Notes: generated by a model not told the origin, from the sequence alone. DNA of 5,021 nucleotides from a virus (IMGVR_UViG_2534681835_000017:1-5021); one strand, 5' to 3'. Numbered from the stretch's first letter, positions 2,896 to 4,471 are shown. Program-made: numbers and translations.

Positions 2896-4200
2896 ATGGC
2901 AGTAAAGATTTCAGGTGTGCTGAAAGACGGCACAGGAAAACCGGTAGAGAACTGCACCATTCAACTGAAAGCCAGACGTAACAGCGCCACGGTGGTGGTG
3001 AACACGGTGGCCTCTGAAAATCCGGATGAAGCCGGTCGTTACAGCATGGACGTTGAGTACGGTCAGTACAGCGTCATTCTGTTGGTGGAAGGATTCCCGC
3101 CGTCACATGCCGGGACCATCACCGTGTATGAAGATTCTCAACCGGGGACGCTGAATGATTTTCTCGGTGCCATGTCGGAGGATGACGTCCGTCCGGAGGC
3201 ACTGCGTCGTTTTGAACTGATGGTGGAAGAAGCAGTGCGTCACGCTGAGGAGGCGAAGAAGAATGCCGGAGAGGCGGAGACATCAGCGAGGAATGCCGGC
3301 ATATCAGCCAGTCAGGCAGAAGAGAACGCTGCAAATGCTGACACTTCAGCAGGGGATGCATCGGAGTCAGCCCGGCAGGCGGCAGAAAGTGCAGCCGCTG
3401 CAAAGCAGTCAGAGGAGGCGTCCTCGTCCTCGGCCTCTGCGGCCGCTCAAAAAGCCAGTGAGTCATCACAAAGTGCAGCAGAAGCTGAATTGTCAAGAAA
3501 GACGGCAGAAAGTGCAGCCGGTAATGCAGCCAGGGATGCAACGACCGCAACAGAAAAAGCCCGGGAGTCAGCAGAAAGCGCACAGTCAGCGGAACAAAGC
3601 AGGATAGCGGCGGAAGAAGCCGTAAACCGAATCCCCACCGTGGTGGGGCCTCCCGGGCCAAAGGGGGAACCGGGGCCCGCGGGTCCTCAGGGGCCGAAGG
3701 GAGATAAAGGAGAGCGTGGAGACACCGGCCCTGTCGGGGCAACCGGTGAACGGGGACCGAGAGGAGATACAGGTCCGGCAGGTCCGCAGGGGCCGAAAGG
3801 TGACAGGGGAGAGCGGGGAGAGACCGGTCTGACGGGAAATGCAGGTCCACAGGGTCCAAAGGGAGATACCGGTGCGGCAGGCCCACAGGGACCGAAAGGA
3901 GAAACAGGTGCGGCTGGCCCGGTGGGGGCAACCGGACCTCAGGGACCGAAGGGCGACCCGGGGGAGACGCAAATACGGTTCCGTCTGGGGCCGGGAAACA
4001 TTATTGAGACAAACAGCCATGGCTGGTTCCCGGATACAGATGGCGCACTCATCACCGGACTGACCTTTCTTGACCCCAAAGATACCACACGGGTTCAGGG
4101 TTTTTTTCAGCATTTGCAGGTCAGGTTTGGTGACGGGGCGTGGCAGGATGTTAAGGGGCTGGATGAAGTGGGCAGTGATACAGGCAGAACAGGAGAATGA
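2896..4200 (+). CDS. stf: Side tail fibre protein with collagen-like domain (lambda Stf-like N-terminus; resembles prophage collagen-like fibre proteins)
   Basis: 434-aa ORF from ATG 2896; the ORF track starts at in-frame GTG 2890, but [17 protein letters not shown].. begins exactly like lambda Stf as recalled. Residues to about 115 are colinear with the lambda Stf N-terminal domain. Then an Ala/Ser/Glu-rich low-complexity segment (about 3241-3630), 36 uninterrupted G-X-Y triplets (3646-3969), and a 77-aa non-repetitive C-terminal domain (3970-4197). Stop TGA at 4198-4200. Confidence 0.85.
3646..3969 (+). repeat. Collagen-like G-X-Y coding repeat (36 triplets) inside stf, with internal nucleotide-level repeats
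   Basis: Translation [27 protein letters not shown]...[12 protein letters not shown] has Gly at every third position without interruption. GPQGPKG recurs five times. A 36-nt tandem duplication sits at 3844-3879 / 3880-3915 ([12 protein letters not shown] / [12 protein letters not shown]), and imperfect 47-nt direct repeats start near 3682 and 3781. Confidence 0.9.
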
Positions 4201-4201
4201 C

Positions 4202-4471
4202 ATGAATATACTAAAAAAACTTATGCAGCGTCTGTGTGGTTGCGGAAAGCATGATGACCGTGAACACGGGGAGTTACTTACAGCACAGCTGCGACTGGGG
4301 CCGGCAGACATCCTGGAGTCAGATGAGAATGGCATTATCCCGGAGGAGGACAGGGTAATCACGCAGGTGGTGATACTGGATGCGGATAAAAAGCAGATAC
4401 AGTGCGTGGTAAGACCGCTGCAAATCCTGCGTGCTGACGGGAGGTGGGAAAATATTGGCGGAATGAAATAG
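4202..4471 (+). CDS. Hypothetical 89-aa protein translationally coupled to stf; not recognisably a Tfa-type fibre-assembly chaperone
   Basis: ATG 4202 lies 1 nt after the stf stop and 5 nt after the strong Shine-Dalgarno AGGAGA (4191-4196). ORF runs to TAG 4469-4471: MNILKKLMQRLCGCGKHDDREHGELLTAQLRLGPADILESDENGIIPEEDRVITQVVILDADKKQIQCVVRPLQILRADGRWENIGGMK. The ORF-track version starting at 4070 overlaps stf and lacks a ribosome-binding site. No signal peptide. Occupies the position of tfa in lambda but is less than half the length and shows no similarity to lambda Tfa as I recall it. Confidence 0.55.
   Translation: MNILKKLMQRLCGCGKHDDREHGELLTAQLRLGPADILESDENGIIPEEDRVITQVVILDADKKQIQCVVRPLQILRADGRWENIGGMK

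Follow-up and report, generated by a model that had tools for sequence, protein, structure and literature searches.

We analysed a stretch of viral DNA of 5,021 nucleotides (IMGVR_UViG_2534681835_000017:1-5021; hereafter the window, to which all coordinates refer), and in it a small open reading frame (ORF) of 89 amino acids (aa) that begins just past a side tail-fibre gene. This small ORF is a true gene, expressed late, whose translation is coupled to that of the fibre gene and which comes last before the terminator; its product carries a free-standing copy of the domain that ends the fibre.

The fibre gene, which is of the EPclA type, occupies 2890..4200 on the plus strand, as do the other features of this transcription unit; its ORF runs from a GTG at 2890, and the RefSeq start is the ATG at 2896. 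According to the Pfam scan, the fibre is built of a PfN domain (phage_tail_N, E = 3.3e-68), a coiled coil, collagen GXY repeats (Collagen, E = 8.5e-18) and a C-terminal PfC domain (Phage_fiber_C, E = 3.9e-35). This PfC knob domain (residues 362-425; 3973..4164), the paralogue of the small ORF, and an 11-residue tail make up the 77-aa fibre tip, which an earlier note on this DNA had regarded as unusual.

The fibre gene ends with TGA at 4198-4200, followed by a single C (4201) and the ATG of the small ORF (4202). The small ORF occupies 4202..4471 (including the stop codon at 4469-4471) and lies in the +1 frame relative to the fibre gene. Its ribosome-binding site, AGGAGA, is found at 4191..4196 within the last fibre codons, 5 nt before the ATG. 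The earlier note had described this tight coupling, with the 1-nt gap and the AGGAGA site, and the coordinates are confirmed; moreover, among 87 small-ORF copies in 80 IMG/VR loci, the junction (AACAGGAGAATGAC followed by ATG), the 1-nt gap and the length of 89 codons are identical in 85. A crude consensus search of the 500 nt upstream of the small ORF (3700-4200) found no sigma-70-like promoter.

An intrinsic-terminator-like hairpin at 4474..4518, with the core CCGGAG-UCC-GGCUCCGG and an A-run and a U-run on its flanks, closes the transcription unit. Folding of the 49 nt just past the small-ORF stop gave -22.1 kcal/mol (z = -5.5), and none of 200 shuffled sequences was equally stable. We note that a consensus pattern scan missed this terminator, for which folding gives a 12-bp hairpin and a U-run; simple scans can overlook terminators in which the A- and U-tracts pair with each other.

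The protein has two parts. The N-terminal 27 residues (4202..4282), which are unique to the small ORF, comprise an amphipathic helix (approximately residues 3-11), an L-C-G-C-G-K stretch and a charged linker; the Cys-Gly-Cys-Gly motif pointed out earlier is residues 12-15. The remainder (residues 28-89; 4283..4468) is a PfC domain with Pfam coverage of 64/64. The protein had also been called acidic, which holds only marginally: its pI is 5.6, and its 15 D/E and 13 K/R residues are nearly balanced.

Relationship of the small ORF to the fibre tip

The small ORF is a member of PF06820 (Phage_fiber_C, PfC) and of PHROG 576. It matches the Pfam profile over positions 1-64 of 64 with 123.8 bits (cut-off 25; E = 3.7e-36), the same full profile that the adjacent fibre tip spans, and it matches PHROG 576 across 89/89 positions (E = 2.8e-59). 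Compared directly by BLASTP, the small ORF (residues 29-88) and the fibre next to it (residues 363-424) are 34% identical across 62 residues (E = 1e-10). Judged from these alignments, the 77-aa fibre tip and the 89-aa small protein are evidently two copies of one domain, and the ORF is not the unrelated gene that the earlier note had allowed for. PF06820 was the sole return of the Pfam scan at E<=1, with no match to Tfa (Caudo_TAP), in agreement with the lack of resemblance to lambda Tfa reported earlier. NCBIfam and PADLOC scans gave no match, and a sequence search for a solved structure found none.

The PfC family is small: clustered at 50% identity, it has 80 representatives in a set of 1.84 billion proteins. 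Identities are 54-82% among small ORFs, 38% among tips and 28-36% between small ORF and tip. As the identities within each group exceed those across groups, the duplication is old, with the two lineages having kept separate identities. The small ORF is thus an ancient paralogue of the fibre knob, in a clade that is separate and more conserved. The PfC domains of EPclA and EPclB belong to the same family with full coverage of the profile; PfC is an autonomous trimerisation domain that forms the distal knob, as determined for EPclA PfC by size-exclusion chromatography with multi-angle laser light scattering (Ghosh et al. 2012). Compared with these, the domain of the small ORF is free-standing, with the 27-residue helical, Cys-containing N-terminus in place of the collagen shaft.

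As for the N-terminus, a search for these 27 residues as a docking motif common to another phage protein returned self-matches only. The segment is amphipathic (hydrophobic moment ~2.0) and has no hydrophobic core, and the divergent homologue P0145, described below, retains the pattern M-x-I-x-K-K...L-x-G-C-x-K. The L-x-G-C sequence suggested a lipoprotein receptor blocker of the Cor/Llp type, a candidate that we rejected: the best 7-residue hydropathy is 0.5-0.9, compared with ~3.0 in Lpp and Rz1; Cys14 is variable, being replaced by Y, H or R in several copies; and in the homologue from Citrobacter rodentium no more than 4-6 residues precede the Cys pair.

A side observation concerns the family itself. 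P0160, a collagen-like protein of 565 aa, has four tandem modules before its collagen region that resemble the C-terminal half of PfC (VVVLDAD...ILRVRQADGTW); a structure search by sequence with P0160 returned collagen matches only. Going by this resemblance, the PfC half-module may be a more general repeat than the Pfam name suggests. The multi-repeat 'PfC' matches of P0165 and P0180 are spurious; these are beta-sandwich repeat proteins.

Distribution, selection and surroundings

The gene is already catalogued, has been remarked on in the literature on phage Sp5, and is ordinary in kind. At the DNA level, Escherichia coli O111:H8 strain 8E has an identical gene (100%), whose product is WP_001023392.1 ('phage tail fiber C-terminal domain-containing protein'). 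Of 5426 complete E. coli genomes, 698 carry the small ORF (median 11 copies, maximum 15), and it also occurs in 296 phage records, mostly Shiga toxin (Stx)-converting phages including 933W. It bears different names in these phages: ORF68 (ECs1229) in Sp5, p60 (Z1484; after the fibre p59) in 933W, 'gp59' in phi24B, and atfT in AU5Stx1, the last standing for 'alternate tail fiber tip' (GenBank KU977419). All four are the same gene, with 91-98% protein identity and 89 aa, located 1 nt past a collagen-like fibre with a PfC tip. The window differs from these Stx-phage copies in that the gene follows an EPclA-type side fibre, downstream of lom, of a degraded lambdoid prophage rather than the lateral fibre of a short-tailed Stx phage, and in a few residues, e.g. 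E49 where most copies have Q. What is new here is the strength of selection, the ancient paralogy together with the constant pairing with PfC tips, the non-conserved frame upstream of the ORF, and the peptides in phi24B virions.

Outside E. coli, the gene is found in E. albertii and C. rodentium; a species-level genome scan contributed nothing further than E. albertii and one contig that is probably a contaminant. The small ORF is also encoded, at 91% identity, on a contig of 725 bp labelled Xanthomonas pisi DSM 18956 (NZ_JPLE01000138.1), which is almost certainly E. coli or phage contamination of that assembly.

The pairing of fibre and small ORF, which the earlier note proposed to check across genomes, proved constant. 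Besides the conserved junctions given above, all 78 assessable fibre PfC tips in a second set of loci are followed by small-ORF sequence, intact in 77 and with homopolymer frameshifts in one. The note had also suggested that the ORF may be matched to the fibre tip, and a divergent locus (L086; GCA_008387015.1) bears this out: there a diverged PfC ends a fibre whose shaft is not collagen, and the 79-aa small ORF that follows, P0145, is likewise diverged. At this locus the two genes overlap by 14 nt, AGGAGG is found at the equivalent place, and a similar terminator hairpin follows P0145. The small ORF always accompanies a PfC-tipped fibre, in 933W-like podoviruses and lambdoid siphoviruses alike, whether the shaft is collagen or not. 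The pairing thus tracks the PfC tip, not the shaft or the type of virion.

Selection on the protein was estimated as the ratio of nonsynonymous to synonymous substitution rates (dN/dS, Nei-Gojobori) from 61 distinct sequences. The ratio is 0.11 overall. Codons 1-27 are less constrained (0.32) than the PfC part (0.05), which is under strong purifying selection; the PfC of the fibre itself has a ratio of 0.22. The lower ratio in the small-ORF PfC suggests that it has a conserved partner, and not a variable host receptor.

Recombination at these loci is intense. In 80 IMG/VR loci (L004-L083), for the region from -231 to +270 around the ORF start, linkage disequilibrium falls from an r2 of 0.33 (<25 nt) to 0.06 (50-100 nt). 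This decay implies that the ~11 near-identical fibre/ORF copies in each genome of enterohaemorrhagic E. coli (EHEC) undergo gene conversion or recombine with one another very often. We found no allele-level co-variation of tip and ORF beyond this decay with distance, a test that says nothing about interaction because recombination is so intense.

Such exchange, with linkage gone within ~50 nt, fits the proposal of an intragenomic reservoir (Mondal et al. 2016), by which the DNA of the small ORF would matter more than its product, serving as a spare tip cassette or as a conserved 3' homology anchor through which fibre genes can be remodelled. Natural chimeras also speak for it: in P0061 (a 4-member cluster) collagen is joined in frame to the small-ORF PfC at a GGGCCGG microhomology, P0123 joins the small-ORF N-terminus to a fibre-tip C-terminus, and P0121 and P0122 are fibre-ORF frameshift fusions. 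These chimeras are rare, however, each being a single- or few-member cluster, and long fibres that end in an ORF-type tip were found in P0061 only. The coding DNA of the tip and of the small-ORF PfC is ~54% identical with a longest shared run of ~10 nt, which offers no substrate for homologous exchange, inversion or mutagenesis of the kind carried out by diversity-generating retroelements (DGRs). In addition, the dN/dS of 0.05, the conserved start codon and ribosome-binding site, and the peptides described below indicate selection on, and production of, a protein, and we consider the reservoir improbable as the main function.

A second copy of a distal domain just downstream of a fibre gene is also known from the invertible G/C segments of Mu and P1 and from the DGR of Bordetella phage. 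The copy in the window differs in being in direct orientation, without flanking inverted repeats, at ~54% DNA identity, and expressed as a protein of its own. Inverted repeats between tip and small-ORF copies reach only the chance level of 12-13 nt, and we therefore ruled out invertible-segment, DGR and homologous-cassette exchange on the basis of the DNA identity and the lack of meaningful inverted repeats, the survey for nearby recombinase and reverse transcriptase genes being limited to the window's ORF list.

The surroundings of the pair are those of a defective prophage. A truncated gene for a lysozyme of the signal-arrest-release (SAR) type (758-~1219) passes directly into a J-like tip attachment gene, of which the C-terminal third is present (1210-2229; Phage_Tail_Tip and Ig_GpJ_C), a junction that implies a deletion of essentially all head and tail genes. 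The prophage around the matching gene in strain 8E shares with the window both the lysozyme::J deletion and the downstream IS1, and there RefSeq marks both truncated genes as pseudogenes. The lysis cassette also contains an ORF of 186 aa (161-721), flanked by a holin fragment and the lysozyme gene, which is hypothetical in strain 8E (WP_001015158.1) and had no Pfam or PADLOC match. Two antisense ORFs, 3119-3931 (minus strand, 270 aa) and 3586-4362 (minus strand, 258 aa), overlap the collagen-repeat region and are most likely by-products of the GC-rich GXY codons.

IS1 lies at ~4679-5021 (insA 4732-5007), ~200 nt past the terminator, and in strain 8E it is followed by a protein kinase gene and transposase remnants. 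These elements place the cargo region proper beyond the small ORF and its terminator. They bear on the suggestion in the earlier note that the small ORF itself may be unrelated cargo; we considered a moron, a type III secretion effector and a defence gene. Effectors do occur past the fibre genes of EHEC prophages, as shown by the NleG and SopA-like effector genes beyond the terminator in L086 and by the kinase gene beyond IS1 in strain 8E. The small ORF, in contrast, lies before the terminator, and the crude consensus search gave it no promoter-like site. It shares homology with the fibre tip, was not once found without a fibre, and matches no effector (Pfam) or defence (PADLOC) family. We regard the cargo reading as effectively refuted.

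Production and possible role of the protein

Evidence of production comes from the proteome of gradient-purified phi24B virions, given in the supplement of a cryo-EM preprint (bioRxiv 10.64898/2026.04.10.717836) and considered here in part. In the part considered, two peptides specific to the small ORF are listed, VITQVVILDADKK and the C-terminal ADGTWENIGGMK, with ~3 counts each. The small-ORF protein is thus made during lytic growth. In the same data, the fibre-tip peptide FGDGPWQDVK has 38 counts and the fibre's own 11-residue C-terminal peptide has 47. With counts ~1/15 of those of the fibre tip, or about one copy of the small protein in a virion that has 18 fibre chains, the product is not stoichiometric with the fibre and is at most a trace or sub-stoichiometric component of virions. 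The text of the preprint does not discuss the small ORF, and the detection is not reported in its prose.

These data bear on the possibility that the small ORF is joined to the fibre by programmed frameshifting or readthrough and serves as a second, alternative tip. Annotations that begin further upstream (129-135 aa), in 933W, AU5Stx1 and phi24B, imply such a fusion, and in 80 of 86 E. coli copies no stop codon interrupts the ORF's frame over the 46 codons that precede its start. Hypothetical gp61-gp59 frameshift fusions (Fusion_6159_FS1/FS2) were included in the phi24B search database, with a match labelled 'Spike or just gp59?'. In L086, however, this opening is just 1 codon long, and the extension is not conserved. 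The fibre's own C-terminal peptide is abundant, no peptide across the fibre-ORF junction appears in the examined part of the phi24B proteome, and the ORF has a canonical, conserved ribosome-binding site and ATG. With the ORF in the +1 frame and no frameshift signal seen at Sp5 ORF68 (Mondal et al. 2016), a fused tip is highly improbable.

The two peptides could also mean that the product is a minor part of the virion, a trimer docked on some fibre tips or elsewhere as an extra or alternative adhesin, like gp38 of T2 or the fibre-retained Tfa of Mu. The position of the gene matches that of tip-binding proteins of other phages, and the AU5Stx1 record names it an alternate tip. The counts of ~1/15 in the part of the proteome considered do not fit this well, the phi24B authors do not discuss the small ORF as a structural protein, and its counterpart in Sp5 is dispensable; we consider this role unlikely.

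The reading that we favour, at a probability of roughly 0.4, is that the small ORF encodes a dispensable, sub-stoichiometric accessory of the fibre tip that acts by recognition between PfC domains. The product would be a 'mini-knob', with a short amphipathic helical stub in place of the shaft and a complete PfC domain, and by analogy with isolated PfC, which trimerises alone, it is probably a homotrimeric knob. It would stay in the cytoplasm until lysis, and would aid the registration or folding of the fibre tip, or transiently cap it, through PfC-to-PfC contact. The Tfa-like position of the gene, the absolute pairing with PfC tips and the conservation above that of the tip itself fit such a role.

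Several points weigh against this reading. In Sp5, ORF68 is listed among the non-essential late genes, being dispensable for plaques and lysogeny on K-12, while the fibre gene, ORF67, is essential (Mondal et al. 2016). The recombinant EPclA fibre (rEPclA) and isolated PfC both trimerise in E. coli without the small ORF (Ghosh et al. 2012). Together these results mean that any role in assembly is possible only as an auxiliary one. The trace in virions could be contamination. Within E. coli, tip and ORF variants are unlinked (r2 of 0.03) and shuffle freely, which indicates no allele-level co-adaptation. The AlphaFold2 monomer model of the small ORF (17-row alignment) is poor, with a predicted local distance difference test score (pLDDT) of 52; the phi24B authors had no confident AlphaFold model of the PfC domain either (bioRxiv 10.64898/2026.04.10.717836). 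Finally, we infer the interaction with the fibre and the oligomeric state only indirectly.

The same considerations define how far the small ORF resembles a chaperone. As the earlier note said, it sits directly downstream of the fibre gene, where lambda has tfa, and it shares with the Tfa type (lambda Tfa, Mu U, P2 G; Caudo_TAP) and with gp38 of T4 and T2 this position directly after the fibre gene, late co-expression, and specificity for the fibre C-terminus. It differs from the Tfa type in having no sequence relationship to it, in being less than half the size of Tfa, in being homologous to its presumed client domain, and in being dispensable in Sp5 next to a fibre that trimerises without it. 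The small ORF thus lies outside the Tfa family though in the same genomic niche. Of the 'new chaperone or cargo' proposal, which is partly supported, an auxiliary role in assembly may hold; the protein is not new, having a Pfam domain, a PHROG, a RefSeq name and a precedent in Sp5 ORF68. An obligatory chaperone is contradicted by the literature, both by the non-essential ORF68 and by EPclA and PfC trimerising alone.

Accessory genes that match a receptor are typically linked to genes for receptor-binding proteins, as with llp of T5 and cor of phi80 and N15. Such linkage counts for another reading, in which the small protein is a soluble mimic of the tip: a knob freed at lysis would occupy the fibre ligand on debris and on sibling lysogens, reducing wasteful re-adsorption, or would otherwise modulate adsorption. 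The protein is a shaft-less version of the distal knob, is produced late along with the fibre, and is dispensable in laboratory plaque assays and non-stoichiometric in virions, all of which would suit a decoy. On the other hand, 28-36% identity to tips does not imply the same ligand specificity, the small-ORF PfC is more conserved than the tip with variants unlinked to tip variants, and the lack of an export signal would restrict its action to after lysis. No ligand of a PfC knob is known, and the role of the lateral fibres is an open question according to the phi24B authors (bioRxiv 10.64898/2026.04.10.717836). We find a decoy unlikely, to about the same degree as the minor virion component.

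To return to the accessory of the fibre tip, a shaft-less mini-knob, duplicated from a receptor-binding tip and translated separately, may represent a distinct kind of fibre accessory, one that pairs like with like in trans and acts as a cap or registration template for the fibre knob, or as a soluble tip mimic that is released at lysis and adjusts how Stx-phage progeny adsorb. We offer this broader idea as speculative and rather doubtful. If true, it would be a class of mechanism apart from chaperones of the Tfa/gp38/gp57 type and from lipoprotein receptor blockers, and it would be relevant to the lateral fibres of Stx phages, which are conserved yet unexplained in their role. Few small phage genes occur in EHEC in as many copies (median 11 per carrier genome) as this one, which most Stx-converting phages also possess. 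It varies less than the fibre tip that it copies, yet it has no assigned function. Its role could clarify how Stx phages adsorb and spread.

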